In this document: positions 1,367 through 26,718 of the stretch, piece by piece
Numbering within the stretch: the first letter of the stretch is position 1
How the letters are laid out: each line of letters opens with the position of its first letter
Assembly: GCA_011052015.1 (NCBI GenBank)
Contig: DRJZ01000051.1
Span: 828 to 64,827, forward strand
DNA from: Acidiferrobacteraceae bacterium
Lineage (GTDB): Bacteria; Pseudomonadota; Gammaproteobacteria; HyVt-429
DNA: 64,000 nucleotides
Reading direction: 5' to 3'
Notes under the pieces: generated by a model
What the model was told of the DNA's origin: nothing
Databases searched by the model: none
Seen by the model: only the letters and a program-made list of their open reading frames with translations
Program-made: the position numbers and the translations under genes

Positions 1367-1544
1367 GTTACCCGGTAGACGGAATGACCATGTTCGGTCG
1401 ACCTGGAAGGTTTCAACCTAAGCTTGGGCCGTGTCTAAATCTAATGGCCTTAAATCTACTCCATCTAATTGAGACCAACATTATTATCGAAATTACTGGC
1501 TTATGAAGTTAAAATAAAACAAAAATCTGGGAGGAGATCTTACT

Positions 1545-2690
1545 ATGGCGTCCAACCGCGACAAAGCGAAAAATATTAATCACTGCCACGCCATCATACT
1601 TGCACTTAGTCTAATAGCCTGGGGACATCCGGCATGGAGTCAAAGTGATGCCAAATACAGCGCACAAATATATAAAAAAAACTGTGCCGCCTGCCATGAC
1701 ACGGGTAATGCCGGTGCACCCCCTCTTAGTGATGCAGGCAATTGGGATAACCGTCTCAGTTGGCCCCGCTGGGTCACCAACCGGCGCGTGATTAATGGCT
1801 ATGGCACCATGCCCCCCCGTGGCGGCAATAATGCCCTGTCAGACCAAGACGTCAAGGATGCGGTGACCTACATGATCGCGCGTATAGAAGCGGGGCCACA
1901 AAAAGAAGCCGAAAACCCAAAAAAGACATCTCGCCGCAACAAAAATAAAGCAACGCCAAACAATGGCAAGTATCACAAACCACCGCAAAACCGGGAAACG
2001 CCCAAAGACAGCTACGGGGATGAGGTCCGCCTGGGCAAGAAGATTTTCACCCAAACCTACAAATATGCGCGTCGCTATGTCGGCAATGAAATGAGTTGTG
2101 CCAACTGTCACCTGGATGCGGGCCGCAAGCCCAATGCCGCCCCGATGTGGGCGGCCTATGGTATGTATCCCGCCTATCGACGCAAAAATGATCGCACCAA
2201 CACCCTGCAAGAACGCATCCAACAATGTTTCCGGTTTAGCTTAAACGGTATTTCACCGGCCCTGGACGCACCGGAACTACGCGCACTCACGAGCTATATG
2301 CATTTTATTTCCAAAGGTGTACCCGTAGGGGTAAACATGCCAGGACGCGGTTACCCGCAAATCAAAAAGACCGGATTTGACCCCAACCCCGCTCGAGGCG
2401 AAACGGTTTATAAAACCAGATGCACATCCTGTCATGGCTCGAACGGTAAAGGCAAAAATAGGCCCGGCGGAGGCTATATCTACCCTCCCCTCTGGGGCGG
2501 TGATTCATACAACAAAGCCGCCGACATGTATCAGATTAAACATCTGGCTGGGTTCATCAAGACCAACATGCCTAAAGATCAGGAAGGGTCTCTGAGCGAC
2601 CAGCAAGCCCTGGACGCCGCCGCCTATATCAACACCCAACTGCGGCCCGGGGACCCCCGTAAGGGCCTCATCCAGAGCCTGTTTGACTGA
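1545..2690 (+). CDS. tsdA: Triheme c-type cytochrome: N-terminal cytochrome c5-like domain fused to TsdA-like diheme thiosulfate dehydrogenase
   Basis: GGAGGAG RBS 7 nt before ATG 1545; signal peptide; three CXXCH motifs (CAACH, CANCH, CTSCH); c5-like N-domain (NCAACHD...GAPPL...GYGTMPPRGG...DVKDAVTYMI); C-terminal part has TsdA-like features (Cys 39 residues after first heme His, PPLWGGDSYNKAADM after second heme); stop TGA 2688-2690 overlaps next ATG. Confidence 0.6.
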   Translation: MASNRDKAKNINHCHAIILALSLIAWGHPAWSQSDAKYSAQIYKKNCAACHDTGNAGAPPLSDAGNWDNRLSWPRWVTNRRVINGYGTMPPRGGNNALSDQDVKDAVTYMIARIEAGPQKEAENPKKTSRRNKNKATPNNGKYHKPPQNRETPKDSYGDEVRLGKKIFTQTYKYARRYVGNEMSCANCHLDAGRKPNAAPMWAAYGMYPAYRRKNDRTNTLQERIQQCFRFSLNGISPALDAPELRALTSYMHFISKGVPVGVNMPGRGYPQIKKTGFDPNPARGETVYKTRCTSCHGSNGKGKNRPGGGYIYPPLWGGDSYNKAADMYQIKHLAGFIKTNMPKDQEGSLSDQQALDAAAYINTQLRPGDPRKGLIQSLFD

Positions 2691-5539
2691 TGAACGCCAT
2701 GACGCAAACTATGATGCAAAAATTCTTCCCCTTTATGCAGTGGCTACCCTCTCTTGGGCAGACCACCCTGCGCCCGGACATGGAGGCGGGGTTCGTCGGT
2801 GCGATTTTGATCCTGCCCCAGGCCATCGCCCTGGCCACCCTCGCCGGTATGCCTCCGGAGTACGGTATCTATACCAGCATCTTCCCGGTCATCATTGCCA
2901 TGTTTTGGGGGTCATCATGGCATACCCTGTCCGGGCCCAATACGGCAGTCTGTGTGCTGATTGCATCATCGGTGGCCCCCTTCGCCGCCATCGGCAGCGA
3001 ACAATATATTGGCTTTGTGCTCGCACTGACATTCATGGCCGGTGCAATACAGTTAGCGGTAGGAAGCCTGCGCTTAGGGGCCATACTCGATTTCGTGTCC
3101 CACACAGTAATCTCCGCCATTGTGCTGGCGGTGGGCCTGATCATCATTGTATTTGCGGCCAACGCCCTGCTGGGGGTGTTAAGCAATCTGGACGAACCCT
3201 TTTATATTCGGCTTCACCAGATCATCCACGATATCCCCCGGGCCAATGGCTATGCCCTGTTGGTGGGAGGGCTCACCATTATCTCCGGCTTGGTAGCACG
3301 GCATTACTGGCGACGTTACTCCCTGGTCATTGCCGTGGCCGTGGGCATGTTGTCGGCGGGGGTCATCAACCTGCTTATGGGCTCGGCCTCCAGCGAACTG
3401 GAACTGCTCGGTACCCTCAGCATATCTGCGTTACCCTTTTCCGCCCCCTCCTTCGACCTGGGTTCCATGGCGGTGCTCAAGGAACTGGTAGCCAGCGCCC
3501 TCTCTATCGCCTTTCTGGGCCTGATGCAGACCATCGTAATCTCGCGTTCCATTGCCGCCAAATCTGGTCAACTTATCGAGACCAACCAAGAGATTATTGG
3601 CCAGGGCCTGGCCAATCTGGTGGCGCCCTTTGTTTCCAGCTTCGCGGGCTCCGGTTCCTTCAATCGTAGCGCCGCACACTACGATGCCGGCGCCAAGACA
3701 CCCATGGCCGCAGTTTATGCGTCGCTCTTTTTGCTGTTAGTGGTGCTCATCGCCACCAAACTGATTGCCTACATCCCCCTGGCCGCTGTGGCCGGCGCCC
3801 TGATTTTAGTCGGCATCGGCCTCATTGATGTTAAAGAAATCAAACAGGTGTTGCGCTCACGCCAAGAAGCGGTCATCTTCTTTATGACCTTCATCAGCTC
3901 CCTGGTCCTGGGACTGAATGCCGGTGTCTTTATTGGCGTACTGCTATCACTGGTAATCTATCTTTGGTACGCCTCTACACCCAATATTGTACTCGAAGAA
4001 CAGACCGCTCGGGACGGGCGACGGGTGAACATCATCACCGTCGATGGCGGCCTGTTTTTTGGTTCGGTACGCCACGTTGAACGGGTGCTCGCAAATCTAG
4101 GCGAAAGAGACGGCTATGATGGCAATCTGATCATCAGAACAGACCATATGACCTACATGGATGTTCCTGGCGCGGCACTGATCGCTGCTGAGGCTAAACG
4201 GCGCCGACAGCACAATGGTCACTTGTATATCTTTGTTACCCAACAAAAAATATCGGATGCACTTGGTCAATCCACCTTCTTTGATGAATTTGGTAAGGAT
4301 CACATTATAGAACGCAATCAAGACCACCCTATGAAAGATGTGTTATACCCCTCAAGAATAAAAAAACCCGCCAGTAGCACACAGACTAATGGCTCTGAAA
4401 AAAAAACCAATTCCCTATCACAATCTCACTCTAAAGATTTAAATGAAACTGCGACATTGGCCTCAAGCTTACAAAACACAAAACTCTTTTCCTTGCTCAA
4501 TACAGAACAAATCGAAACTTTGCTTAAAGACTCACCTATACAACATGGCAACACCGGCACCATCATCACCGATCCCGAAACTCCCATGTCCGGACACTTT
4601 GTGTTGTTGGAGGGTCGCGTTGATATCGAGCGCCTGTGGTCACTCCCTAAAGGTGGCGCCAAACGTACTAGCAGTATCATGGACCCCAATCAGGAAAATT
4701 CGGGTATCGCTATTCTACAGGCTTCGGGTCATGGTGTGCGCATCACCGCTAATGGTGTGATCACCTACCTTTTTATTGACTGCGAAAAGTTTGACTCACT
4801 TTTGGGCTGGAACCAACAACTTGCCGATATGGCCGAAACTGACCCGGAAATATCACGCCGCATGTCCCTTATAAAACATGCCGCTCTATTCCGCCAGCTT
4901 CCCCTGGAAAACCTCAAACAGGCCCTACAAAGCATGACTCCCCGGGACGTAAAGGGAGGAGAAACCATTGTACGCCAAGGTGAAACCGGTACTAGCTATT
5001 TCTTGATTGAGAGCGGTGAAGCCGGTGTGTGGAAAAAAGACACCTTTAGCGATGATACGGTCTACGCCAATACCATCGCGCCTGCGGCGCGCTTGGGTCC
5101 GGGGGAAGGCTTTGGTGAAGAGGCCTTGTTACAAAATGGCTTTCGAAGCGCTACTGTAATGATGACCACGCCGGGCCGGTTACTGGTGATGGACAAGCAG
5201 CACTTTGACGCCCACATCCGACCCTCGTCCATTAAAATGATTAGTCCCAGCGAGGCCATCAGATTTATCAAGGATAGCAAGGTGCAGTGGCTCGACTGCC
5301 GGTACGATCTGGAATATTCCGAAGCCCACATCCCCAATGCCTTGCATGTACCGTTAGATCAACTAAGGGAACAGCTTGCAGGCCTTGATCGCACCAAGCC
5401 ATGCATCGTTTATAGCCGCAATGAGCGCCGCAGCCGTGCAGCTGCGTTTTTGCTCACGGAACATAACTTCAACATCAAGGTACTGAAAGGCGGAATTATG
5501 CATTGGCCTTACGATCTCGAAGATGGAAAAACCGGGTAA
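2690..5539 (+). CDS. SulP-family anion transporter with STAS domain fused to two cNMP-binding-like domains and a C-terminal rhodanese-homology domain (catalytic Cys replaced by Ser)
   Basis: N-terminal SulP permease hydrophobic core (EAGFVGAILILPQAIALATLAGMPPEYGIYTS...), STAS-like region (VNIITVDGGLFFGSVRHVERV...), S/T/K-rich linker, canonical cNMP phosphate-binding cassette (FGEEALLQNGFRSATV), rhodanese fold ending PCIVYSRNERRSRAAAF (Ser where the active-site Cys is expected). Confidence 0.8.
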   Translation: MNAMTQTMMQKFFPFMQWLPSLGQTTLRPDMEAGFVGAILILPQAIALATLAGMPPEYGIYTSIFPVIIAMFWGSSWHTLSGPNTAVCVLIASSVAPFAAIGSEQYIGFVLALTFMAGAIQLAVGSLRLGAILDFVSHTVISAIVLAVGLIIIVFAANALLGVLSNLDEPFYIRLHQIIHDIPRANGYALLVGGLTIISGLVARHYWRRYSLVIAVAVGMLSAGVINLLMGSASSELELLGTLSISALPFSAPSFDLGSMAVLKELVASALSIAFLGLMQTIVISRSIAAKSGQLIETNQEIIGQGLANLVAPFVSSFAGSGSFNRSAAHYDAGAKTPMAAVYASLFLLLVVLIATKLIAYIPLAAVAGALILVGIGLIDVKEIKQVLRSRQEAVIFFMTFISSLVLGLNAGVFIGVLLSLVIYLWYASTPNIVLEEQTARDGRRVNIITVDGGLFFGSVRHVERVLANLGERDGYDGNLIIRTDHMTYMDVPGAALIAAEAKRRRQHNGHLYIFVTQQKISDALGQSTFFDEFGKDHIIERNQDHPMKDVLYPSRIKKPASSTQTNGSEKKTNSLSQSHSKDLNETATLASSLQNTKLFSLLNTEQIETLLKDSPIQHGNTGTIITDPETPMSGHFVLLEGRVDIERLWSLPKGGAKRTSSIMDPNQENSGIAILQASGHGVRITANGVITYLFIDCEKFDSLLGWNQQLADMAETDPEISRRMSLIKHAALFRQLPLENLKQALQSMTPRDVKGGETIVRQGETGTSYFLIESGEAGVWKKDTFSDDTVYANTIAPAARLGPGEGFGEEALLQNGFRSATVMMTTPGRLLVMDKQHFDAHIRPSSIKMISPSEAIRFIKDSKVQWLDCRYDLEYSEAHIPNALHVPLDQLREQLAGLDRTKPCIVYSRNERRSRAAAFLLTEHNFNIKVLKGGIMHWPYDLEDGKTG

Positions 5540-5609: not shown

Positions 5610-6704
5610 ATGAAAAAACTACTCAATCGACTCAAAGCGGAAAAGCTGTTTTCAATGCTGACCGAAAAACAGCTCCACACAGTCCTGGAACACAGCAAAA
5701 TCTGCAATGCCGAGGCCGGAGACGTGGTTTTCCCTCCTGACGAACCCATCACCCACTATCTCGTTATTGTTGATGGCGAACTTGGCTGTGAACGCCAATA
5801 CACCAACGCCGACGGCCAACAAGAATTCCGCCGCAGGGTACTGAAGGGCTGCGAGGCAGAGGGTGAGATCGCTGTACTCACCGCTGCGGGTCGCGGTTGC
5901 ACCGCGAGCGCCTTAACTCCTCTACGCTACATGCTGATCGAAGGCGATCTGATCGACGTATTTCTCGGCTGGAACCAGCAAGTGTCCCGCGCCATCGTCA
6001 ATGACCCTGAACTCACTCACCGCGCCAAGCTCGTTAAACAGGTCAACGTCTTTCATCAATTGCCCCTGGAAAACATCCAAGCGGCCTTCAAACGCATGTC
6101 AACAATTGAAGTGGGTGCCGGAAACACCGTGGTCAACGAGGGGGATTCCGGGGACTGCTACTATGTGATCGAAACCGGCACCGCAGAAGTATGGCGAACC
6201 GATCCCTTCACCGACGAAACCAAACTGGTTGCAGAATTTGGCCCTGGAGACGCCTTTGGGGAAGAGGCCTTGCTGCAAAATGCCCTGCGCAATGCCACCG
6301 TTAAAATGACATCGCCGGGGAGCTTGCTGGTACTCCAAAAATCCGACTTTGATGAATTGGTGCAACCCAAGTTTCTCCAGGAAGTCGAGGCCGATGTTGC
6401 CCGGGATATGGTCGATCAGGGCAAGGCAAAATGGCTGGACTGCCGGTACGAAATGGAATACGAAGAATCTCGCATACCCAATGCCCCCCTCATCCCCCTG
6501 GACCGCATTCGAGAAAACACCCATAAGCTGGATTCCGACTCCACCTACATCGTCTACTGCCGTAGCGGTCGGCGCAGCAAGGCAGGGGCATTCTTGCTGC
6601 GCGAGCGAAATATTAAGGCCCTGTCCATGATTGGAGGCATCGCTAACTGGCCTTTTGAAATCGATGCCGAAGCCATAGATTTAACCGATACCCACACCAC
6701 GTAA
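5610..6704 (+). CDS. Standalone tandem cNMP-binding-domain / rhodanese-domain protein (paralog of the C-terminal module of the upstream SulP fusion), active-site Cys present
   Basis: AAGGGGG RBS before ATG 5610; FGEEALLQNALRNATV phosphate-binding cassette; rhodanese loop YIVYCRSGRRSKAGAF (CRxGxR type); about 45-50% aa identity to residues ~600-949 of the 2690..5539 protein. Confidence 0.75.
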   Translation: MKKLLNRLKAEKLFSMLTEKQLHTVLEHSKICNAEAGDVVFPPDEPITHYLVIVDGELGCERQYTNADGQQEFRRRVLKGCEAEGEIAVLTAAGRGCTASALTPLRYMLIEGDLIDVFLGWNQQVSRAIVNDPELTHRAKLVKQVNVFHQLPLENIQAAFKRMSTIEVGAGNTVVNEGDSGDCYYVIETGTAEVWRTDPFTDETKLVAEFGPGDAFGEEALLQNALRNATVKMTSPGSLLVLQKSDFDELVQPKFLQEVEADVARDMVDQGKAKWLDCRYEMEYEESRIPNAPLIPLDRIRENTHKLDSDSTYIVYCRSGRRSKAGAFLLRERNIKALSMIGGIANWPFEIDAEAIDLTDTHTT

Positions 6705-6878: not shown

Positions 6879-9275
6879 CTAGATTACAGCCGCACTATTG
6901 CTGCCTTTTTCCCGGAGTCGTGCAAAAGCGATGAAAGCCGCCATATAGATGACCAGCGCTATCAGAAATAATAATTTAAATCCGATATATAGCGTCAACA
7001 CAACGCTCAGGACTCCTCCAATTACGGTAAACAGACCGTTCATGCCCCATGCCCATGGTATGGCGCCTTTTGGTTGATCCTGGATCGCCAATATACCCAG
7101 AGGCAGAGGCATGCCCATGAATATACCCAGGGGAATTATCATTGCTAATGATATCCCGATCCTTATCCAGATGGGTTCTTGCAGGAACGTATTAAATATC
7201 CAATGGTACGAGAATAGAAAAACAATCCCTATTGTCGCTATTCCGATAAATGGCCAATACCATTTATTTTTAACATCGATACCCAATTTCTGGGCTGCCA
7301 GACTGCCTAGTCCTGCCGCCAAGAGTAATGCAAACACGACCGTCGAATAGGTGTAAAGTGGATACCCGATCAGCTTCATGAACATCTGGATAAACATTAA
7401 TTCGATAATGATGAATCCAGCCCCAAGACATGAGAAATAAATGAGAGTCGTGGTTTTGGAATTCCAATGCGCCCGCCCCGCACTTGAATAATAGAGAGGG
7501 GCAACAATAAATAACACGATAAATATTAATGATGCGTAGCTTGTGATCACCAGGTGGAATATTTCTCGTGGAATACCCAGTTTACTAAGTTGTGAATTTA
7601 ACAGCGACGCGGTTGAGTAATCCATGTAAACGCCGCTTCCAGGCATTATTTTCTCGGTACTCTTGCGGAGGAAGTTGAAGAACGGTCTATTGTCGGTAGA
7701 GGCGAAAATATTGAACGGACTTTTTTCTATCGTTTCGGGAGATAACCTGCCGCTAAAATACTCGTCTGGGAGATATCTATTTTCACCGGATAAAGGATCC
7801 TCAACCAACTCTCTCTTTGAAATGATGCTATTCATTTCCGTGACTTCTTTTTGTGTCCAGGGACTCATTTTGACCATAAATGTGGGTAGATTGTCCTGAA
7901 ACCCTTTTGTTTTGTTTTGATAAACCAAAACGTGTTGCCTGAAGCTCGTGTAACCCAGTTTTCTCCAGGCTGCGGCGGCAGTGGTAACCATGCGTGGATA
8001 TACATGGTGGTTTATTTGCAGGACGCCATCTTTCTTCAGGTGCCTGAAATACTCTATATAGGCTTCGACGGTCTGGAGATAGGTTGTCGCCATTGCTCCA
8101 TTGCCCGCCGCGATGCTTGAGCTTGTGTGGTTGCTGAATATCTGGATGATGTCGTATCTCTTATTTTCCGATCTCAGGAAGCTTCTACCTTCCCCTTTGA
8201 GGTAGTTCACATTAGGATGATTGTAGATTTGTCCATTGTATGACGCGTATTTCTTCTTACCCAGTTCCACGACATAACCGACCAGTTCGATGGCGTCGAT
8301 AGTGGCTGCACCATAGGTAAGCGCCGCTTTGACTTCCTGCCCACCGGCACTGCCGATGACGAGAACGTCCTGTTGGCTATCACGCTTGAGATAATGTGAT
8401 GCAATGACAGCCGGATGCGTAAATTGTTGCCGATAATTTGCCGGCAGCCCCTTGCGCAGTTTCTTAAAATTACCATCGAACTTGACGACAACACTTGTCT
8501 GTGACCCTCCGTCATATAGAATATCTTTTCTTGCTTCAAAACCCGCCACGTCTATCTTCGATACCGGATCCCAATGGGTCAATTCTATTTTTCCCAGTAA
8601 TCGTAGTGTCCTGATGTTCCGCTTATCGCCGTGCGCCTTAAATACGAAGTAATCGGCCGAAGACACAAAGGGTGCGACTATACATGCCGTACCAATAACT
8701 AGCGCCACGTTTCGCCATACAATGTGCTTCGCAAATAAGCCCGACGCGATAATGCAAATCCCACCCACCATAAACAATAGGCCACCTGGACCCACATATG
8801 GCAAAAATGGAATAATAGCAATGCTGCCGAGACCCGCACCGATCAGGTCCCAGAAATACAGCGTTCGGATATTCGATGCGTACTTGGAAAAAAGAATCGC
8901 AAATACACTGCCCGAGAAGAAGAACGGTAAGGCCAGCACAAAATATACTATAAGTATAAGAAACACACCCTTTTTCGGATCAGAGAATAAAATATCAAAA
9001 TCAAAGTCCAGGTAATTTAATACAGGAAGTATTACTATGCTGAAAACACCGAATGCAAAGGCCATCACAGATAATCTGAATGCCGGGTCCTTGTGTGCAG
9101 CCAGCGGCTTTAAAGATAAATATATACCTGCCAGGGCAAAGCAGAACAAGGCGAGTGTTATCACCATATACGCCATGTGCGGAGCCCACAGCGAATCAAA
9201 TATCTTAATTAAAGTTAGTTCCAGCATCAAGGTTGCGAAAGCAACCATGAACAGTGCAACCTTGGTTTTAATCAT
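6879..9275 (-). CDS. Fused MFS-like membrane domain / spermidine-synthase-like (PABS methyltransferase-fold) integral membrane protein
   Basis: Many predicted TM helices at both ends; central Rossmann/PABS-like motif (VLVIGSAGGQEVKAALTYGAATIDAIELVGYVVELGKKKY...YDIIQIF); markedly AT-rich codon usage relative to the neighbours. Confidence 0.5.
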   Translation of the reverse strand: MIKTKVALFMVAFATLMLELTLIKIFDSLWAPHMAYMVITLALFCFALAGIYLSLKPLAAHKDPAFRLSVMAFAFGVFSIVILPVLNYLDFDFDILFSDPKKGVFLILIVYFVLALPFFFSGSVFAILFSKYASNIRTLYFWDLIGAGLGSIAIIPFLPYVGPGGLLFMVGGICIIASGLFAKHIVWRNVALVIGTACIVAPFVSSADYFVFKAHGDKRNIRTLRLLGKIELTHWDPVSKIDVAGFEARKDILYDGGSQTSVVVKFDGNFKKLRKGLPANYRQQFTHPAVIASHYLKRDSQQDVLVIGSAGGQEVKAALTYGAATIDAIELVGYVVELGKKKYASYNGQIYNHPNVNYLKGEGRSFLRSENKRYDIIQIFSNHTSSSIAAGNGAMATTYLQTVEAYIEYFRHLKKDGVLQINHHVYPRMVTTAAAAWRKLGYTSFRQHVLVYQNKTKGFQDNLPTFMVKMSPWTQKEVTEMNSIISKRELVEDPLSGENRYLPDEYFSGRLSPETIEKSPFNIFASTDNRPFFNFLRKSTEKIMPGSGVYMDYSTASLLNSQLSKLGIPREIFHLVITSYASLIFIVLFIVAPLYYSSAGRAHWNSKTTTLIYFSCLGAGFIIIELMFIQMFMKLIGYPLYTYSTVVFALLLAAGLGSLAAQKLGIDVKNKWYWPFIGIATIGIVFLFSYHWIFNTFLQEPIWIRIGISLAMIIPLGIFMGMPLPLGILAIQDQPKGAIPWAWGMNGLFTVIGGVLSVVLTLYIGFKLLFLIALVIYMAAFIAFARLREKGSNSAAVI

Positions 9276-9504
9276 TCTCGCACCCTTCAGATAATAAATT
9301 CCTGATTATTTTTGTGCATTTTGAAACAATCTACGCCTACTTAATCAATGCCTGTCTCACAAGATCAAAGCCATATGACAGATAAAATTATTGGCGACGG
9401 AGTAATAAAAACTTCCTCTATCTCAATAAACTCGCTATGGTTTCCCCATAAATTTTCCTGAAGAGCCATAAAACATAACATGAATGATACTACAGACACG
9501 CTAT

Positions 9505-9637: not shown

Positions 9638-11305
9638 ATGTTAAATATTCAAATTAGTTTTGGTAAGGCAGCGGCGATCACGGTAGGTCTTGCCCTATTG
9701 CTTTACAAGTTATGGCTGGTCGAGGTTCATGATCTCTTCATGATAGGCAGCCCCATGGATGACCTGTTTTTTGTGCGTTCCGCCCAAGAATTGCTGGCCG
9801 GTAACTGGCTGGGCCGCTATACACAATACACGCTGATGGCCGGACCGGTCTACTCCATGTGGATCGCCCTGTGCTACCTGCTCGCAGTGCCCTTACACGT
9901 GGGCCAGCAACTGCTTTATGCCGGCGCTTCCCTGGTGACGGTTCTGGCCCTGTATCCGGTGGTGAGGCATAAGGGTTGGTTGCTGCTTGCCTTCGCCTAT
10001 CTTTTATTTAACCCCTTTACCTATGACTATTCATCGTCTGCCGGCGCCTTCCGGTTGGGGATTTACCCGGCCCTTGCGTTGCTGGTAATCGGGTGCGCCA
10101 TTGGCCTATATACGCGGGCCACGGTCCCCCGGGGCAAACCGTTGCCGTGGGCCGTGGGCCTCGGGGTGGCCTTGGCGGCGTTTTGGTATACACGCGAGGA
10201 GGGTATATGGATCGTGCCGGCGTTAGTGCTTACCGGCTTGTTTGTGGCCATACACGGCCGCACCCGCGGGCAGCGCCGCTGGACCTGTATTTTAGGCTTG
10301 CTCGCGGTGCCTCTGCTGATCTGGACGGGTTCATTCCTTGCGCTTGGGTATATGAATTGGAAGCACTACGGCATCTTCACCGACCTCGAGATCAAGAGCA
10401 CCGAATTCAAGTCAGCCTATAGCGCCTTGATCAGTGTGCGCAGCAATAAACACCAACGGTACTACCTGTTGGAGGCTCCGGTGAGTACCGCTCTAATCAA
10501 GGTGAGCCCTGCGTTCCGGGAGATCAAGCTTTATGTTGGTAAACTTCCTGCCTCGGTTTTTATCTGGTCCCTGCGCGATGCGGTGCAGGCAGCCGGGTAT
10601 TATGACCATGCCGGAAACGATGATCGAAAAAATGGACCGAAGACATTGGATTTTTATAAAAGGTTGGGCGATGAGATTCACCGGGCATGCGATACGGGGC
10701 AATTGACCTGTGATCGGTTGCTGTCATCGTTTGTCCCCGCGTGGACCGAGGAGTATAACCGTGAAATCTTTCCTACCCTTTACGATGTCACCAGAAAGTT
10801 ATTGACATTTGATGGCTTCGATCCGCGCATGCTCGCGAAATGGGTCAGCAGTGATCCCTATGACACATCTTGGTTGTTTACCTATATCACCGGCGAGCGG
10901 TTGCGTACCACCGATCCGGCTGTGCTCAGCAAAGTGCCCGAGGCGCACAGAGAATTTGAGGACATGAAGACTCATCGCCTCCTGCGCATCGGCCGCGACT
11001 ACTACCAGAATCTATTGCCATGGTTGTTTTGGCCCAGCGTAGTCGTGATATTGTTGGTTGCCCTCGTGGAGGCGATCAAAAGAAGAATGTCGCAAGTGAC
11101 AGTGGCTGCATTGATCGTGTTAGCGGCCCTCGTGTCGCATATCACGATTATCTCGCTGGTCGCGATGATGTCGACATTCGCACAGCGCTATTTGTTCGCT
11201 TCCTATCCTTTTGTCATTCTGGTCGTAATCCTGAGTGCGATTATGGTAGTACGCGTTATCACCACTTTGCGCGGCGGTATTGATGACATGGGCAATAGGA
11301 CATGA
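9638..11305 (+). CDS. GT-C fold glycosyltransferase-like polytopic membrane protein (ArnT/PMT-like)
   Basis: N-terminal TM followed by a DD/E motif in the first loop (PMDDLFFVRSAQELLAGNWLG), multiple TM helices, periplasmic domain, two C-terminal TM helices. Confidence 0.4.
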   Translation: MLNIQISFGKAAAITVGLALLLYKLWLVEVHDLFMIGSPMDDLFFVRSAQELLAGNWLGRYTQYTLMAGPVYSMWIALCYLLAVPLHVGQQLLYAGASLVTVLALYPVVRHKGWLLLAFAYLLFNPFTYDYSSSAGAFRLGIYPALALLVIGCAIGLYTRATVPRGKPLPWAVGLGVALAAFWYTREEGIWIVPALVLTGLFVAIHGRTRGQRRWTCILGLLAVPLLIWTGSFLALGYMNWKHYGIFTDLEIKSTEFKSAYSALISVRSNKHQRYYLLEAPVSTALIKVSPAFREIKLYVGKLPASVFIWSLRDAVQAAGYYDHAGNDDRKNGPKTLDFYKRLGDEIHRACDTGQLTCDRLLSSFVPAWTEEYNREIFPTLYDVTRKLLTFDGFDPRMLAKWVSSDPYDTSWLFTYITGERLRTTDPAVLSKVPEAHREFEDMKTHRLLRIGRDYYQNLLPWLFWPSVVVILLVALVEAIKRRMSQVTVAALIVLAALVSHITIISLVAMMSTFAQRYLFASYPFVILVVILSAIMVVRVITTLRGGIDDMGNRT

Positions 11306-11889
11306 TGTCGGTATAGCGGGTTTAACACACAGAGCCGTCCGGCAAGTATTACACGCAACAACGGGTTACGCACCAGTGTCGGGATTGCAATGCAGGGCAA
11401 TGGCGACACAATGTTGCAATTGCGCACGCTCGTCCATACACAAAAGTTTGTTTATGCCTGGACGCGAATGGTGCAACAGGTCTATGGATATCCGGATATG
11501 CGATGGATTTGCTGTAGTGCGGGATATCCTACAGCGTACCGTGCACAGCTACCTGCCCCTACTGAATTATACCGATCGGCAGGCGACCGGTATTCGGTGC
11601 CTCAGCCTGTCCCGTTGCATCGGTAGGGTGATCAATCCTGCAGAGGACCGTTTTAGGGAGAACGATCCGGTCACCATGCGACTCCCGCTCTATGCAGCAG
11701 AGCACGAAAACGAACTATGGACGTGTTTCTTTAAGGGAAGGCTCAGTGGGGTAAAAAGAATCATCAATTAACAAAAGTGCCCATATGTCTATTACTCATG
11801 GAATAAAACTACCCCCCTATAACGTCTACTAAAGTGATTTGAAGAAACCTCACTTTCAGAAACCTCTAGGAGATAAACCCGTGACCAAG

Positions 11890-12351
11890 ATGAAACGCAG
11901 AGCATTTCTCAAGGGCAGCATGGCTGGGAGTGTGCTCGCCATAGCGGTCGGCGCCGGGCTACTGCGCCCTACCCAAGTCATGGCCAGCCAATGGCCGGAT
12001 AAGGCCTTTAAAGCACGCAACCTCGCCGATGCGGTCAACAGTCTATATGGCAGTTCAGACGTTGCGGACAGCAAAGCTATCAAGATTCGTGCGCCTTTAC
12101 AGGCAGAAAATGGCGCCAAGGTGCCAATTCAGATCCTCACCGATCTACCAGCAGAATCTATTGCCGTCTTTGTTAAGGAAAACGCCATGCCCTTGGCAGG
12201 GCGCGCCAATCTGCGCAATGCCAGTGGTTTTTTTAGTACCCGTATCAAGATGGGTAAGAGTTCCGATGTGGTCGCTGTGATCAAATCAAAAGGCAAGCTC
12301 CACTCAACCAAGCTGGCGATTAAAGTCACTGTAGGTGGTTGCGGCGGCTAA
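11890..12351 (+). CDS. soxY: SoxY sulfur-carrier protein, copy 1
   Basis: Tat-like signal MKRRAFLKG; C-terminal GGCGG swinging-arm motif; ORF track starts at 11839 but ATG 11890 (MKRRAFLKG) is the likely start. Confidence 0.85.
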   Translation: MKRRAFLKGSMAGSVLAIAVGAGLLRPTQVMASQWPDKAFKARNLADAVNSLYGSSDVADSKAIKIRAPLQAENGAKVPIQILTDLPAESIAVFVKENAMPLAGRANLRNASGFFSTRIKMGKSSDVVAVIKSKGKLHSTKLAIKVTVGGCGG

Positions 12352-14334: not shown

Positions 14335-15453
14335 CTAAAACCCGTCCAGCTTCAAGCGTAGATCCGTTGGACTACTGGCATGGTCGAGGGCCACCTCTTC
14401 GCTGATTTCACCCTGGCGGCACAACGTAAAAAGGCTCTCATCGAAGGACAACATGCCCTCTCCCAAACTGCCCTTTTTGATCATATCGTTGATTTCCTTG
14501 CCTTTGAGGGGATCCAGGATGAGTTCACGAATCAAGGCAGACACGGTCATCACCTCCGTGGCCACAACCCGTCCTTCGCCGCTGTGACGGGGCAATAGAC
14601 GCTGGGCCACGACAGCATACAAGTTTTGTGCAATTTTGGAGCGTATGGTGGGCTGTGCCGCTGCTGGAAACACCGAGATCATACGAGTGATTGTCTCTGC
14701 CGCTGCCGGTGCGTGCAGGGTGGTGAAAACCAGGTGGCCCGTTTCGGCTGCGGTGAGCGCAATCTCCATGGTTTCATAATCGCGCATCTCACCCAGCAAT
14801 ATGACATCCGGGTCCTCGCGCAAGGTGGCGCGCATGGCGCCGGCAAAATTATTGGCGTCCACTCCAATTTCACGTTGCGAGATAATGGAGCGTCGTTCTG
14901 TAAACAAAAATTCAACGGGATCTTCGATGGTCAGTATGTGCTTGGCGTATTTGTCATTAATCTCATTAATCAACGACGCCAGAGAAGTAGATTTACCCGA
15001 CCCCGTGGCGCCAGTGAAAATGACCAAACCCCGCTCCAGATCCACAAGACGGTTTACAATATCGGGTAACTTCAGCTCATCGGGTTTTGGAACCTCGGTG
15101 TTGATGACCCGCAAAGCCATAGCAATAGAACCGCGTTGGTAATACACATTAACCCGGACCCGGCCAATGCCCTTCAAACCAATAGACAGGTCCACCTGGT
15201 AGTCTTCCTGAAACTGATCCCAGTGACTAGGCGCCATAATGGTCTGGGCCAACTCTTCCATGAAGGTCAAACTCAACATGGGATACTCATTAACCGGCCG
15301 CAATACTCCATCGACCCGGAGAATGGGAGGCGCCTTGGTCCGCAGATGAATATCCGACGCCTTCTCACGGTTGGCGTGATCCAGAATCGCACTGAGGAAT
15401 CGCAGCGGGTTGCCTAATTGGGCGGCGGCCTGCGGGTTACTTGCTTCAGCCAT
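14335..15453 (-). CDS. pilU: PilT/PilU-family type IV pilus retraction ATPase (PilU-like)
   Basis: Walker A GATGSGKST, ILTIEDPVEF, Asp box, LGEMRD, His box TGHLVFTTLHA; C-terminal DLRLKLDGF resembles PilU. Confidence 0.8.
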   Translation of the reverse strand: MAEASNPQAAAQLGNPLRFLSAILDHANREKASDIHLRTKAPPILRVDGVLRPVNEYPMLSLTFMEELAQTIMAPSHWDQFQEDYQVDLSIGLKGIGRVRVNVYYQRGSIAMALRVINTEVPKPDELKLPDIVNRLVDLERGLVIFTGATGSGKSTSLASLINEINDKYAKHILTIEDPVEFLFTERRSIISQREIGVDANNFAGAMRATLREDPDVILLGEMRDYETMEIALTAAETGHLVFTTLHAPAAAETITRMISVFPAAAQPTIRSKIAQNLYAVVAQRLLPRHSGEGRVVATEVMTVSALIRELILDPLKGKEINDMIKKGSLGEGMLSFDESLFTLCRQGEISEEVALDHASSPTDLRLKLDGF

Positions 15454-15614
15454 GTCCTATCCTTTATTGCTCTGAGCTCAGCCTGGATACTACCCCATAG
15501 CATTGCTGAATTCAGATAAAAGACCGCAGTTCAAAATATTCGCGTCTGGAAAGGCGCTCCTCCAAGGGGGAAAAATACCCTGGCCCCTACAGAAGCGAGC
15601 TCACGATCAAACTA

Positions 15615-15732
15615 AAGAAATTCTGATCAATTGAACTTGAACCGCCAAGATGCCAAGAATTTTCTTTATAAAAACCAACAATCTATTAGCTTGGCGACCT
15701 TGGCGGTTTGAGCGCATTAATCAGAGGTTCCC
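15615..15732 (+). mobile_element. MITE-like element copy 1 (imperfect 17-bp TIRs, TA target duplication, internal CGCCAAG repeats)
   Basis: TA|AAGAAATTCTGATCAAT...ATTAATCAGAGGTTCCC|TA; near-identical copies at 25352-25476 and 52660-52800. Confidence 0.6.
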
Positions 15733-15740
15733 TATAAATA

Positions 15741-15764
15741 AAAAGGGGCGCATGCGCCCCTTTG
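15741..15764. terminator. Bidirectional rho-independent terminator (GGGGCGCATGCGCCCC palindrome flanked by A/T runs)
   Basis: Perfect 16-bp palindrome 15745-15760 with AAAA upstream and TTT downstream, in the convergent gap below the 15788-16345 gene. Confidence 0.6.
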
Positions 15765-15787
15765 AATTGTAGTGTGCAGACTTTCAA

Positions 15788-16330
15788 TTACGGACAGGCC
15801 GTCGTCTCGCTCGGCACCTTACCCACCAGCAACAAGAAGTTCTCGAACGGGCCCATGTTCTTCATGGCCTCCCACATTGGACCCTCGAAACCCAAACGCC
15901 CGAACATCATGGCCTTCATGGGGCCGTAATCACCGTTACCCATTTGAACCCAGCGCTGGGTCTTGGCATACATTACATAGTCAACACCGGTGTCAAGTTC
16001 CTTGTGTTGTACTGCTCCGCCGTAGGTGCACAGGGCTTTGCCGTCTTTCTGGGAAATGCTGACTTCCACCCGTGGGCTTTTTTCGCAATCGGAACGATAA
16101 AAATGGATAATCTTGTAACCCCGTCCCTTGTCATTACCTGCCCAACCGGACTTGGCCAACTCGTCGGTTAATACCGGGTCACCATTCCAGGCCTCACAGG
16201 CCGCAGTGGCCCATTCTGCCGACATCATCAGGGGACCCGCCTGGGCGGCGGGGACCCCCACCAACAGCAACCCAAGTCCCAGACCGACAGGCCACTGCCG
16301 GGTGGCACGCAACATTAAATTAAATCGCAT
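15788..16330 (-). CDS. Periplasmic SCP2-like (sterol-carrier/lipid-binding fold) protein
   Basis: Signal peptide MRFNLMLRATRQWPVGLGLGLLLVGVPAAQA; C-terminal SCP2 signature (YGPMKAMMFGRLGFEGPMWEAMKNMGPF). Confidence 0.5.
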   Translation of the reverse strand: MRFNLMLRATRQWPVGLGLGLLLVGVPAAQAGPLMMSAEWATAACEAWNGDPVLTDELAKSGWAGNDKGRGYKIIHFYRSDCEKSPRVEVSISQKDGKALCTYGGAVQHKELDTGVDYVMYAKTQRWVQMGNGDYGPMKAMMFGRLGFEGPMWEAMKNMGPFENFLLLVGKVPSETTACP

Positions 16331-16421
16331 TATGAAATCCTCCATCTTGATTTAAGCCCCGCACGCGTTGCCCAGGACTGTTTATTGTATGAGTATATTC
16401 TTCAACACTTAAATAGCCGGA

Positions 16422-16451
16422 GAAAAAAAGGGCCATGGTTTCCCATGGCCC
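16422..16451 (-). terminator. Rho-independent terminator downstream of the FadL-family gene
   Basis: GGGCCATGG-TTTC-CCATGGCCC perfect 9-bp stem followed by a T-run on the minus strand. Confidence 0.55.
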
Positions 16452-16485
16452 TGAATTTTAAGCTAGCTGTTAAGCAGTGCCCACC

Positions 16486-17778
16486 CTAAAAATTAAGGCC
16501 CACTGAAAAAGCATACTGCTTCATCTTGATCTCAATGGTCTCAGCCGGGTTCAACATACTGGGTCCGGAAACCGAGTTGCTGGGAGCATACATAACGGCC
16601 ACATTGAGCTGCTTACCATGACTCAAGTCTTTGCCGAAACCAAAGGTAAAGTGGTTTTCCACCACCCCAGGGGCCAGGATATTGAGGGTCACTTCAGACG
16701 GACTGATAGGCTGACTGCCGGTAGCAAAACCCGCACGCCAGGTCCAACCACCATTGGTCTTCCTCTGGTAACCGATCTTGAAAGCGGTCATATCATCCCA
16801 CCCAAAACCGGCACTGGCGCTGCCGCCAAGACAATTGGCCATCACACCCGCCATGCAGCCGGAGGTCAATACGCCACCGGGGTTACCCACTGCGTCTACA
16901 TCAGAGTACCAGATCTGCTGAATGTCAAAGGTTACCGCAGATTTGCTATCGGGTTTGAAAGCCAGACCGATAGTGGCGGTAGCGGGAATATCGAATTCAC
17001 CACCCTTAGGGAACAGACCCGCATACTTGTCCATCTTATTGCTAATCTTGGTCTGATAGGACGCGCCAAAACTAAGCTGCGAGTTCACCTTAGCCAGGAT
17101 ACCGATCTTGCCACCAAAACCCCAAGTGCTGTCTACACCGTTGTTGGATAGCTTGGTAGGCGCTACCGAAAACCCACCGAAGGCCGCCAGACCATCCGCC
17201 TTAAACCGGGAGTGGTTGATGATGCCGGTAATACCGATCGACACCGTGTCACTCACCTTACGGGCATAGGTGGTATTGATAAACAATTGCTTGTAATCAA
17301 TGCCGGCATTGGGGTCGCCTGCCCCAGCACCACCGAAGGTGCCAGCACCAAATGTGGTATCGGCATCGGTGTATTCTGAGTTCATACCACCATTACCGAA
17401 CACGGTAACACCAATAGAGCTATTTTTGTCCAGCATCTTGTTATAGGCAAAGTTCGGGATCAAAAAGACCTCGTTATCACTCTGCACCGGTCCGCCGACA
17501 AAGGGTGGAAAGCTGCCATTGGTGCCGGTAATGGTGTATTCACGAATGGGGTGAAACGACGTAATTCCAACAACGGTACTATTCCCCACCATAACCATAC
17601 CCGCAGGGTTGATGGCGCCGGTCATGGCATCCTGGGGCAAGGCCACACCAGCACCGCCCATGCTGCTCTGGATGGCTCCATAGCCGTGCGAAAAATAGCC
17701 CAGTGTCGCGTTGCTGACGGGTGATGTAAAACCCAGTGCGGCAGCCACAGCGAAAGCGAGTGTTGTTTTCTTGTTCAT
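16486..17778 (-). CDS. FadL/TodX/OmpP1-family outer-membrane channel for hydrophobic compounds
   Basis: Signal peptide; N-terminal GYFSHGYGAIQSSMGGAGVALPQDAMTGAINPAGM hatch motif; beta-barrel pattern with C-terminal Phe. Confidence 0.65.
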   Translation of the reverse strand: MNKKTTLAFAVAAALGFTSPVSNATLGYFSHGYGAIQSSMGGAGVALPQDAMTGAINPAGMVMVGNSTVVGITSFHPIREYTITGTNGSFPPFVGGPVQSDNEVFLIPNFAYNKMLDKNSSIGVTVFGNGGMNSEYTDADTTFGAGTFGGAGAGDPNAGIDYKQLFINTTYARKVSDTVSIGITGIINHSRFKADGLAAFGGFSVAPTKLSNNGVDSTWGFGGKIGILAKVNSQLSFGASYQTKISNKMDKYAGLFPKGGEFDIPATATIGLAFKPDSKSAVTFDIQQIWYSDVDAVGNPGGVLTSGCMAGVMANCLGGSASAGFGWDDMTAFKIGYQRKTNGGWTWRAGFATGSQPISPSEVTLNILAPGVVENHFTFGFGKDLSHGKQLNVAVMYAPSNSVSGPSMLNPAETIEIKMKQYAFSVGLNF

Positions 17779-20938: not shown

Positions 20939-21355
20939 ATGCGGAAATCCAGCACTTTCATTACCACCCTCGGTGCAGTTGCACTGATGATGGGTGGAAT
21001 GGCAATTGCACCGCAGGCAGTCGCGGTCGGCGAAATGCCGAGCAAGAAAGTCTGTAAATCAAAGCCCAAAGACCCCGTGGTCGCGGGTGGGTGCATCGCC
21101 ACTGACCGTAAAAAAGGCAATTGCATGGCTTGCCACAGCTTTGCTGGTCTAGAGAAGACCCGACTCCAATCCGGCAACGTTGGACCACCTCTCGTCGCCA
21201 TGAAACAACGCTTCAAAGACAAGAAAAAACTGCGTGCCCAAATCTGGGATGCCACCAAGGCTAACCCGCAGTCCATGATGCCGCCATTTGGTAGACATAA
21301 AATCTTGTCTGAAAAAGACATTGATCTGATTACCGCATGGGTGCTTAGCCTGTAG
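20939..21355 (+). CDS. soxX: SoxX monoheme cytochrome c
   Basis: Signal peptide, single CMACH heme motif, MMPPFG; first gene of a soxXYZA(B) array. Confidence 0.8.
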   Translation: MRKSSTFITTLGAVALMMGGMAIAPQAVAVGEMPSKKVCKSKPKDPVVAGGCIATDRKKGNCMACHSFAGLEKTRLQSGNVGPPLVAMKQRFKDKKKLRAQIWDATKANPQSMMPPFGRHKILSEKDIDLITAWVLSL

Positions 21356-22296: not shown

Positions 22297-23115
22297 ATGA
22301 AGAAGCTTATTATTGCAGTAACGGCTCTTGGATTGCTGGCGTTTGGTTCGCTATCGGTCCAAGCTAGCCCTCAAAGTGACCTGAAAGCATTTCAGGGATA
22401 CTTTAAGAAAAACTTCCCAAAAATCAAATTCGACGATTTCTCAAATGGTCTTTATGCCCTTCCTGAGGCCGCCGACCGGCGCGCCGAATGGGAGGCCATC
22501 GAAGAATTCCCACCTTATGAGCTTGACCTCGCCAAGGGTAAGAAGTTTTGGGAGAAAAACAAGCTGGGTACCTGCTTTAAGAATGGCGGTGCCGGTATTG
22601 CCCAAAACTACCCCTACTGGGACAAGAAAAAGAAGGAAGTCCGCACCGCAGAGTTGGACATCAATGCCTGCTTGAAACGGCAAGGCAAAAAGCCTATCAA
22701 AAAAGGCAAATTGGCTACCGTAACCGCCTATTTCTATAACATGGCGCGGGGCAAACGGATCAAGATTGACGTGTCAGCTCCTGGCGCTATTGCCGAATAT
22801 GAGAAGGGCAAGCATTTCTTCTGGGCCAAGCGCGGCCAGTTGAACTTCTCATGCGCCAACTGTCACATCAGCGGGGCAGGCAAGCGGGTTGGCGGTAACA
22901 TCATGAGTACGGCTCTGGGTCACGGTACCGGTTTTCCGGCCTACCGCTCCAAGTGGGGCGGTCTGGGTACCATCCACCGCCGTTATAAAGGCTGCAACAA
23001 GCAGGTGCGGACTGCGCCATTAAAGCAGAACAACAAGACGTACCGTGCACTGCAACTGTATGAAACATATATGAATACAGGCCTGCCTTTGACGGCACCC
23101 AGTAACCGGTTCTAG
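22297..23115 (+). CDS. soxA: SoxA, monoheme type
   Basis: Signal peptide; single CANCH heme motif; Cys ligand in RRYKGCNKQVR; no second CXXCH. Confidence 0.85.
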   Translation: MKKLIIAVTALGLLAFGSLSVQASPQSDLKAFQGYFKKNFPKIKFDDFSNGLYALPEAADRRAEWEAIEEFPPYELDLAKGKKFWEKNKLGTCFKNGGAGIAQNYPYWDKKKKEVRTAELDINACLKRQGKKPIKKGKLATVTAYFYNMARGKRIKIDVSAPGAIAEYEKGKHFFWAKRGQLNFSCANCHISGAGKRVGGNIMSTALGHGTGFPAYRSKWGGLGTIHRRYKGCNKQVRTAPLKQNNKTYRALQLYETYMNTGLPLTAPSNRF

Positions 23116-25482: not shown

Positions 25483-26718
25483 TTATACTGCTTCGAGCTT
25501 GCGCATGGCCTTGGGTAGCATGCGCATATCCACCAACGAACTGACCAATGCAGCGTAAAAGTTGGCCTCGTCTTCGTACACCATTCGGTAATATTGAATT
25601 TTCATGGTTAAGGCACTGCCAAACACGATAGAGAAGAACACCAATATTGATCCAAGGGCCAACGTGGATATGCCAGTAATCGCCTGGCCGACGGTACAGC
25701 CCATAGCCAACACCCCACCCACACCCATCAGTACCGCACCCATGGCGTGCCTAAAGAAATCTCCAAATGAGGCAAACCACTCAATACTGAATCGTTTCGA
25801 GATAATGGCGTATAAAAACGACCCCACGATAACACCGAACAGGGCCATTACACCAAAGTTTATGAAGCTGACTTTAGTAGGGCTCGACAAATAGCGCCAG
25901 GTATCACCCGTGGGACTGACAAATGTATAGGACTGGGCCATCACCCGGCTTGGGATCTCATCGGCAAATTCAGCATAGGCTTTCCATTCCTCACCCATAG
26001 GGCCCGCAGTAATGTACCAACCCGCAATAATCACCAAACCAATGACAAATCCAGCGAGTACATTATCAAACCGGCTGCGAAAATCTGTGGATACAAACAC
26101 AAATATCGCCAGGGACAGGGCAATTAAGCCACCAAACACAAAATGCAACATAGAGGTATCCTCCATGCCGATCGCGCCACCGATAATAGCGCCAAGCTCC
26201 TGGCTCCCAATGCCCATTGCCGCCAAATCCACGGTCGTGGGCTGAATCCAGGGCATGAAATAATTGGTAAAAATACCTTCACCCGGCGCCAAGGGATCCT
26301 CTCCCCACAGCATCATATAGGCAGAAGCAGCAATAATAACGAGCACAACAATGGATTTGATATTGCCGCCACCGATACGTACCAGGGTACGCTGAGCGCA
26401 ACCACTCCCTAAGGTCATACCGATGCCGAACAAGGTGCCCCCCAGGACATACCGCAACCAGGCAAAATTGGCCGTACGATAAGGCGGGAAGGTCGCTGTA
26501 CCCAGTTCAATTTTGCCCAAATACTCAAGCAACAGCACACCAGCCAAGGCCACGGTCATAGCAAACACCCACGCCCGTAAACGTCCAGTGTCGCCCATAT
26601 TGACCCAGTCGGAGACCGCACCCATGGTACAAAAATTTGTTTTGAAAACTATCGCACCCATAAATACAGCGAGCAGGAATACGAGTAATAAAACTTGAAT
26701 ATGGATAGTAAATTCCAC
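25483..26718 (-). CDS. YeeE/YedE-family (TsuA-like) putative thiosulfate/sulfur-compound transporter
   Basis: Two internally repeated halves, each with the conserved Cys motif (FCTMGAVSD and GCTVGQAITGIS); highly hydrophobic, 411 aa. Confidence 0.7.
   Translation of the reverse strand: MEFTIHIQVLLLVFLLAVFMGAIVFKTNFCTMGAVSDWVNMGDTGRLRAWVFAMTVALAGVLLLEYLGKIELGTATFPPYRTANFAWLRYVLGGTLFGIGMTLGSGCAQRTLVRIGGGNIKSIVVLVIIAASAYMMLWGEDPLAPGEGIFTNYFMPWIQPTTVDLAAMGIGSQELGAIIGGAIGMEDTSMLHFVFGGLIALSLAIFVFVSTDFRSRFDNVLAGFVIGLVIIAGWYITAGPMGEEWKAYAEFADEIPSRVMAQSYTFVSPTGDTWRYLSSPTKVSFINFGVMALFGVIVGSFLYAIISKRFSIEWFASFGDFFRHAMGAVLMGVGGVLAMGCTVGQAITGISTLALGSILVFFSIVFGSALTMKIQYYRMVYEDEANFYAALVSSLVDMRMLPKAMRKLEAV

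Follow-up and report, generated by a model that had tools for sequence, protein, structure and literature searches.

Thiosulfate dehydrogenase TsdA serves as a model both for catalysis at a cysteine-ligated haem and for the shunt between thiosulfate and tetrathionate in the sulfur cycle, and its mechanism runs through a Cys-S-thiosulfonate (PMC4423706). The route by which its electrons reach the respiratory chain varies among organisms and is partly known: TsdB, a high-potential iron-sulfur protein (HiPIP) and free monohaem cytochromes take part in different species. TsdB consists of two tandem c4-like His/Met haem domains, and in Marichromatium purpuratum it is fused to the enzyme as TsdBA. 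The reviews and primary papers searched mention TsdA, TsdB and the Marichromatium-type TsdBA only; no description of a TsdA fusion with three haems was found in this literature. Such a protein is encoded at positions 1545-2690 (plus strand) of the stretch analysed here, 64,000 nucleotides from an Acidiferrobacteraceae bacterium (assembly GCA_011052015.1, contig DRJZ01000051.1, positions 828 to 64,827), hereafter the window. The Acidiferrobacteraceae are a family of sulfur-oxidising lithotrophs. The protein can be identified with high confidence as a TsdA carrying a tethered c5-like domain; it is apparently an undescribed variant of a known family, recurrent in uncultured Gammaproteobacteria.

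The gene is a single open reading frame (ORF) with an ATG start, listed in the window as 381 codons plus stop, and its product is identical to NCBI HEC12202.1, a 'c-type cytochrome [Acidiferrobacteraceae bacterium]' from a metagenome-assembled genome (MAG). Database labels of such proteins say merely 'c-type cytochrome' or 'thiosulfate dehydrogenase'. A Shine-Dalgarno-like GGAGG, read from the sequence, stands 10 nucleotides 5' of the ATG (1530-1534, plus strand); a scan for promoters and terminators returned nothing beyond the shuffled background, a weak sigma-70-like match at 1487-1515 being at chance level. Two ORFs that overlap the gene in other frames, at 1839-2225 (minus strand) and 2377-2595 (plus strand), arise as a side effect of the true frame. 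Residues 1-32 (1545-1640, plus strand) form a predicted Sec-type signal peptide, judged by eye: the N-terminus, MASNRDKAKNINHCHAIILALSLIAWGHPAWS followed by QS, has a basic n-region, a hydrophobic core of 13 residues and small residues at -3 and -1, and cleavage is predicted between AWS and QS. The solved relatives retrieved by a search of PDB sequences are all periplasmic cytochromes.

Three CXXCH motifs are found, at residues 47-51 (CAACH), 185-189 (CANCH) and 293-297 (CTSCH). Pfam places Cytochrome_CBB3 (PF13442) on the first, with its best match at residues 40-110 and an E-value of 2.9e-29 for the whole protein, SoxA-TsdA_cyt-c (PF21342) on the second (residues 181-261, E 1.3e-11) and Cytochrom_C (PF00034) on the third (residues 283-364, E 4.4e-20). 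Since every motif lies inside a significant cytochrome domain, the three are not a chance pattern. An earlier reading of the DNA made without database searches (the sequence-only reading) had described three such motifs in one secreted polypeptide, with one extra haem domain instead of a diheme TsdB, and on these points it agrees with the present analysis; the strings that it quoted, NCAACHD, GYGTMPP, DVKDAVTYM and PPLWGGDSYNKAADM, all occur as written.

The C-terminal 230 residues are TsdA by sequence, predicted fold and aligned catalytic residues, as had been proposed. A catalytic domain occupies residues 151-262 (1995-2330, plus strand; PF21342 and alignment to the TsdA of Allochromatium vinosum, AvTsdA, and to M. 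purpuratum TsdBA) and an electron-transfer domain residues 263-381 (2331-2687, plus strand; Pfam, PDB alignment and fold match). In a search of all PDB sequences, the catalytic half is matched best by M. purpuratum TsdBA (5lo9), whose residues 245-480, within the TsdA half only, align with residues 145-372 at an E-value of 7e-55; residues 152-368 match AvTsdA with an E-value of about 5e-46. An AlphaFold2 model, built on an alignment of 68 sequences, has a mean predicted local distance difference test score (pLDDT) of 86, with both folded parts above 90, and in Foldseek its C-terminal part superposes on AvTsdA (4wq7) with a target template modelling (TM) score of 0.89 and a root-mean-square deviation of 2.6 Å over 233 columns.

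Residue roles were taken from Grabarczyk et al. 2015 (PMC4423706) and transferred in the numbering of the AvTsdA precursor. His80 corresponds to His189, the histidine of CANCH (nucleotides 2097-2111, plus strand), and Cys123 (Cys96 of the mature enzyme) to Cys228 (nucleotides 2226-2228, plus strand), the predicted distal ligand and catalytic cysteine, the two stretches reading RIQQCFRFSLNG here and RIGDCFERSLNG in AvTsdA. Cys228 lies exactly 39 residues past His189, as the earlier reading had counted, and it is invariant in the 68-sequence alignment and in that of 32 triheme relatives. The substrate-pocket residues Arg119 and Ser127, both invariant in TsdA (PMC4423706), become Arg224 and Ser232; Cys228 and Arg224 are kept in 32 of the 32 triheme relatives and Ser232 in 31. 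Arg109 is replaced by Lys214, a substitution known in some TsdAs (PMC4423706), and this position is occupied by Lys in 23 of the 32 relatives and by Arg in 6. In the electron-transfer domain, His191 corresponds to His297 of CTSCH (nucleotides 2421-2435, plus strand), and Lys235-Met236 to Asn341-Met342, the predicted distal site of haem 2 (Met342, nucleotides 2568-2570, plus strand), where Asn341, Met342 and Pro343 belong to a KTNMP motif whose Asn and Met are kept in all 32 relatives. His189 and His297 are invariant or nearly so in the same set. The string quoted earlier after this haem is present, but Met328, with which its 'AADM' ends, is not the ligand; that role falls to Met342.

The N-terminal domain (residues 33-116; 1641-1892, plus strand) is a monoheme class I cytochrome c domain according to PF13442, the PDB search and Foldseek. 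It carries CAACH (nucleotides 1683-1697, plus strand) and a predicted axial Met89 (nucleotides 1809-1811, plus strand) in the sequence GYGTMPPRGG. In a search of the PDB with residues 33-128 alone, the best matches are the Chlorobaculum tepidum cytochromes c-556 (8hn3, E 1e-13) and c-555/554 (4j20, E 3e-11), followed by Shewanella c5/ScyA, c551, c6 and Azotobacter c5 (1cc5, E 4e-6). The modelled domain, with helices at residues 30-51, 64-71, 75-84 and 100-116, superposes in Foldseek on such proteins with TM scores of 0.75-0.83, the highest on 8hn3 (0.83, with a deviation of 1.6 Å) and 0.79 on 4j20. Across the triheme relatives the CXXCH, an AP, Trp67, Arg70 and a G-x-M-P-x-x-G-G loop bearing the Met ligand are conserved, with Cys47, Cys50 and His51 in 32 of 32 proteins and Met89 in 30. 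The only cysteines of the domain are those of CXXCH, and GGNNALSD stands where Shewanella c5 reads GGMCTDCTD; thus, lacking the disulfide cysteines of c5 proper, the domain is nearest to the c-555/c-556 subtype. The resemblance to cytochrome c5 claimed by the sequence-only reading therefore holds for the c5/c-555 group as a whole, in sequence and in fold, and more closely for its c-555/c-556 type than for c5 proper.

Between the two folded parts lies the K/N/P-rich low-complexity segment that had been noted before, a flexible linker of about 35 residues at residues 117-150 (GPQKEAENPKKTSRRNKNKATPNNGKYHKPPQNR; 1893-1994, plus strand; delimited by sequence and pLDDT). In the AlphaFold2 model pLDDT falls below 50 for residues 122-139, and the segment looks like a flexible tether, predicted to be disordered. 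Among the 32 triheme proteins its length ranges from 29 to 146 residues and its sequence is not conserved; the composition is simple throughout, K/N/P here and P/A/T/S in the other proteins. The end of the linker, YHKPP...TPKD, belongs to a conserved N-terminal extension of the TsdA core, and the corresponding consensus, Y-H-x-P-P...I-P-N-D, is found also at the mature N-terminus of diheme relatives.

The fusion is not unique to this genome. The 120 closest protein clusters (at 90% identity, from JGI, ENA, Logan and NCBI assemblies) include 31 with three CXXCH motifs in the same layout (363-487 residues) and 89 with two, and none has four. Thus the claim of a variant architecture stands in so far as the variant is apparently undescribed, but it is not a one-off. 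The triheme members, one of them 78% identical (NOZ10726.1), all come from metagenomes or MAGs; the GTDB species representatives that have them are SZUA-467, PMV_4.23, UBA6920 and an 'Oligoflexales' MAG. Distances between N-terminal domains and between cores co-vary (Mantel r 0.59, a value reached in none of 2000 permutations), which indicates a long shared inheritance of the two parts. In an unbootstrapped neighbour-joining tree of the TsdA cores, triheme and diheme proteins interleave. A search with the N-terminal domain alone against an index of 5.8 billion proteins gave one match, the word-index limit making this a weak search.

A wider set, 267 relatives from an exhaustive search of representatives at 50% identity, in which the count of 37 triheme proteins is approximate, shows other arrangements of the TsdA core: diheme TsdA alone, the 2+2 arrangement of TsdBA, and one heptahaem protein of 937 residues that joins a c5-like domain, a TsdB pair and TsdA. 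Four side representatives (P0146, P0167, P0179 and P0134) account for the heptahaem protein and for triheme ones of another kind; in P0146, P0167 and P0179 the single extra domain is TsdB-like, which indicates that single-haem acceptor modules of different cytochrome descent were joined to TsdA on more than one occasion. P0251, a candidate for a TsdA followed by a c5-like domain at its C-terminus, was discarded: it is a membrane-anchored protein with three c5-like repeats and no TsdA core. The fusion studied here is a modest and unsurprising variant by domain shuffling, plausible rather than surprising to a specialist.

The TGA stop of the cytochrome gene (2688-2690) overlaps the ATG of the next gene (2690-2692) in a TGATG. 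This second gene (2690-5539, plus strand) encodes a protein of 949 residues in which, by Pfam, a SulP-family anion transporter is joined to STAS, cyclic nucleotide monophosphate (cNMP)-binding and rhodanese-like domains; on TIGR00815 it scores 274 bits, below the cut-off of 380 bits. Comparison of 86 fetched loci divides TsdA into two classes. A SulP gene lies directly 3' and on the same strand in every locus whose core shares at least about 51% identity with the one described here, except L025, which has a fused TsdBA. This class counts 25 non-redundant loci with triheme or diheme proteins (L001, L002, L004-L006, L008, L010-L024 and L026-L029), with outlying members in Ideonella, Variovorax, Burkholderia and Rhodocyclales; the tsdA stop and the sulP start often overlap, and in the nearer members of the clade the transporter chain also includes STAS, cNMP-binding and rhodanese domains. 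No tsdB is found in 22 of the 25, and the order tsdB-tsdA-sulP occurs in the other three (L021-L023), namely Ca. Thiosymbion, a Chromatiaceae MAG and one other. The second class, found in Pseudomonas, Stutzerimonas, Rhodanobacter, Paraburkholderia and others, has cores that are 47-52% identical and nearly always a tsdB upstream or fused, with no adjacent SulP gene. No tsdB was found within 6-10 kb in any triheme locus, nor anywhere in the window. The triheme form thus belongs, as a sub-variant, to a TsdA clade marked by linkage to a transporter and by the missing TsdB.

As to function, the protein is taken, with moderate confidence and by homology, to be a thiosulfate dehydrogenase of the TsdA family that holds three haems, resides in the periplasm and works in the oxidative direction. 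Two thiosulfate ions would be converted to tetrathionate at haem 1 (His189/Cys228), via a Cys-S-thiosulfonate intermediate, with Arg224, Ser232 and Lys214 holding the substrate in position; the two electrons would pass from haem 1 to haem 2 (His297/Met342) and from there to the haem of the N-terminal domain (His51/Met89). On its disordered tether of about 35 residues, this domain would probably act as a built-in mobile carrier, docking alternately on the face of haem 2 and on a respiratory acceptor, for instance a cbb3-type oxidase or another high-potential cytochrome, and would replace a separate diheme TsdB or the fused TsdB of TsdBA. We infer this electron route, its direction and its physiological acceptor; the role of the extra domain as electron acceptor is suggested by the architecture and by analogy. 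The closest solved relatives of the domain are themselves electron carriers: C. tepidum c-554 delivers to the reaction centre the electrons released in thiosulfate oxidation, and c-556 is supplied by the Rieske protein (PMC10172866). The translational coupling of tsdA to the SulP-STAS-cNMP-rhodanese gene would fit a pair that probably handles the same pool of sulfur oxyanions.

Several points weigh against this oxidative scheme. Catalytic activity and haem ligation are predicted from homology, and the AlphaFold2 model gave no docking geometry between the N-terminal domain and haem 2. In two triheme relatives (P0023 and P0027) Ile replaces the Met ligand of the N-terminal domain (G-I-P-S/A-S), so that the extra haem of these two may have another ligand or be left with five-fold coordination. 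The 89 clusters without the extra domain, out of the nearest 120, belong to the same SulP-linked clade, hence the domain is not essential to the function of that clade. Finally, TsdA enzymes are bidirectional, and published reports describe an Asn-Met haem 2 both in the reduction-biased enzyme of Campylobacter and in the oxidation-biased one of Marichromatium, as well as in the TsdAs of Thiomonas and Halomonas; since Asn-Met enzymes of both biases are known, the sequence cannot give the direction. Oxidation is favoured because the protein is found in the Sox-rich context of a sulfur oxidiser.

The opposite direction is the alternative that survives best, although it is regarded as rather unlikely. 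The protein would reduce tetrathionate in the periplasm, with electrons entering at the tethered c5/c-556-like domain: they would flow from the bc1 complex or a periplasmic cytochrome pool to the N-terminal domain, then to haem 2 and haem 1, and the thiosulfate formed would be imported by the SulP-rhodanese transporter. Bidirectionality and the Asn-Met site shared with the reduction-biased Campylobacter jejuni enzyme agree with this possibility, as does c-556, the best solved relative of the N-terminal domain, which takes its electrons from the Rieske protein (PMC10172866); the cytoplasmic rhodanese, a thiosulfate sulfurtransferase fold, on the downstream transporter would suit thiosulfate uptake. 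However, the Marichromatium enzyme also has Asn-Met and is reported to be an enzyme of oxidation, the genomic setting is that of a Sox-containing sulfur oxidiser, and thiosulfate is only a putative substrate of the transporter.

Whatever its direction, the N-terminal domain might in principle be a degenerate TsdB, left after an ancestral tetrahaem TsdBA fusion had lost one haem domain. TsdBA fusions are indeed present in 22 of the 267 TsdA relatives, and the single TsdB-like domain of P0146, P0167 and P0179, which scores 65-92 bits on a TsdB-domain profile, speaks for this origin as well. Profiles built from the two TsdB domains of those 22 tetrahaem relatives, however, give 9.3 and 12.8 bits on the N-terminal domain, as against 63-83 bits for the two TsdB domains on each other, and a profile of the N-terminal domain family gives about 117-124 bits on its own members. 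With the domain as query, the TsdB half of 5lo9 was not recovered from the PDB at E<=10, and BLASTP at an E-value of 1e-3 found no match in any tetrahaem relative. A half-TsdB origin, rejected by comparison of hidden Markov models with hhalign, is thus very improbable: the low profile scores and the unrecovered TsdB half make the domain a functional analogue of TsdB at most, and not a remnant of it.

Still less probable is that the diheme part at the C-terminus only resembles TsdA and comes from another family, such as SoxA or a c4-type or other diheme cytochrome, without the TsdA cysteine position, which the sequence-only reading had named as the finding that would overturn it. Matches below threshold do exist, to the diheme QcrC of bc complexes and to the SoxA equivalog TIGR04484, on which the protein scores 54.1 bits over residues 174-262 only, the cut-off being 110. 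Conversely, the region aligns over its full length with two solved TsdAs (E 1e-46 to 1e-55); the alignment to AvTsdA shows the Cys ligand position, occupied by Cys228, and the Arg/Ser pocket to be conserved, the fold match reaches a TM score of 0.89, and the window holds a separate, genuine SoxA (22297-23115) with 188.9 bits on the same profile. An artefact, in which a frameshift, an assembly chimera or a wrong start joined a small cytochrome gene to tsdA, can practically be dismissed: such errors occur in MAGs and nothing else speaks for it, but the frame is uninterrupted, a ribosome-binding site and a signal peptide are present at the N-terminus only, and the same layout recurs in 31 independent clusters at 90% identity, one of them a 78%-identical syntenic locus.

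The cassette formed by tsdA, sulP and, in some loci, a cNMP-rhodanese gene is a more novel lead than the fusion itself. In the window the third gene (5610-6704, plus strand) encodes a cNMP-binding and rhodanese protein of 364 residues, recognised by Pfam and by reading of its active-site loop, which is a paralogue of the C-terminal region of the transporter; it is found also in loci L001 and L004. In the transporter itself the rhodanese loop reads VYSRNERRS (5230-5260, residues about 850-860), with Ser in place of the catalytic Cys, in the window and in its closest relative L001 only; in these same two loci the loop of the separate cNMP-rhodanese paralogue is intact (VYCRSGRRS), and all other SulP fusions examined keep the rhodanese Cys. 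From these loops, the pair looks like a duplication followed by decay of the copy fused to the transporter. L004, a metagenome contig of 420 kb, contains two divergent triheme tsdA-sulP pairs about 6 kb apart, one with a long-linker protein of 480 residues (8001-9443) and the other with a short-linker protein of 385 residues (15346-16503, minus strand). In L005, a Gammaproteobacteria MAG, a diheme tsdA-sulP pair is closely preceded by the gene for a secreted monohaem cytochrome of 92 residues (L005:107-385; NCDRCH, no Pfam match on record), which may be a separately encoded partner; no such small cytochrome lies upstream of the diheme tsdA of L006, so it is not a general feature of the diheme members.

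No publication on the linkage of tsdA with SulP was found, queries with 'SulP' having matched mostly 'sulphur/sulphide'. A speculative and unlikely possibility is an undescribed two-gene cassette: (c5-)TsdA would interconvert thiosulfate and tetrathionate in the periplasm and, coupled to this reaction, the SulP protein, gated by cyclic nucleotides, would transport a sulfur oxyanion that its own rhodanese domain then processes in the cytoplasm. The anion would most plausibly be thiosulfate, and the TsdB-less clade would have several ways of wiring itself into the respiratory chain, among them the tethered cytochrome. If this were true, a second, transporter-linked functional class of TsdA would exist, distinct from the canonical tsdB-tsdA class. 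A functional link would also offer a testable idea on the anion carried by these SulP proteins in sulfur oxidisers.

The remaining sulfur genes of the window form a partial Sox set: soxY (11839-12351), a SoxX-like monohaem protein of 138 residues (20939-21355), the monohaem SoxA mentioned above (22297-23115; 189 bits on TIGR04484) and a SoxB-like metallophosphoesterase/5'-nucleotidase (23320-25068). A YeeE/TsuA-like 'sulphur transport' membrane protein is encoded at 25483-26718 (minus strand). Between the cNMP-rhodanese gene and soxY sit a gene for a multi-pass membrane protein of 798 residues (6879-9275, minus strand) and one for a protein of 555 residues (9638-11305, plus strand), both without a Pfam match at E<=1e-4. 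In the syntenic L001, the closest relative, soxYZ follows directly after the tsdA-sulP cassette, therefore this block of about 5 kb looks like an insertion. Immediately upstream of the cytochrome gene, 533-1366 encodes a FecR-domain protein of 277 residues; L001 has two FecR-domain genes at the same place, after a two-partner-secretion pair, and the more distant triheme loci have no FecR.

For the study of TsdA, the natural fusion names a partner class, the c5/c-555-type cytochromes, for a large TsdB-less clade, and it offers a self-contained construct for work on intramolecular electron transfer and catalytic bias. Among known systems the most similar is M. purpuratum TsdBA (5LO9), in which an electron-accepting cytochrome module likewise precedes TsdA in one secreted chain and haem 2 has the Asn-Met site. 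TsdBA, however, has four haems and a diheme c4-like TsdB module, whereas the protein described here has three, with just one CXXCH beyond those of TsdA, in a single c5/c-555-type domain that shares with TsdB no more than the class I fold and is joined by a long, low-complexity linker predicted to be disordered.

AvTsdA (4WQ7, 4V2K) shares the two-domain fold, the His/Cys haem and the equivalents of Arg119 and Ser127; differently from the triheme protein, it is diheme only, has a Lys-Met site with ligand switch instead of Asn-Met, and Arg109 in the place of Lys214. Its reported acceptor is a separate HiPIP. C. jejuni TsdA has the Asn-Met haem 2 and no TsdB partner, its presumed redox partners being monohaem cytochromes c; there, the partners are separate and the enzyme is mainly a tetrathionate reductase, whereas here one monohaem domain is tethered to the enzyme. 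The C. tepidum cytochromes c-556 and c-554/c-555 (8HN3, 4J20), with the wider c5 group (1CC5, 5B6Q), have the same four-helix class I fold and Met loop as the N-terminal domain, but those of C. tepidum serve a phototroph as free-standing or lipid-anchored carriers, and are not parts of an enzyme.

Finally, SoxAX (Rhodovulum sulfidophilum, 1H31) possesses a homologous Cys-ligated catalytic domain (PF21342), and 1h31 matches the protein at an E-value of 6.5e-10. Type I SoxAX also totals three haems. SoxAX joins thiosulfate to SoxY, whereas TsdA joins it to a second thiosulfate; the protein described here stays below the SoxA equivalog cut-off, and the window encodes a true SoxA, together with a SoxX-like gene, apart from the triheme TsdA.

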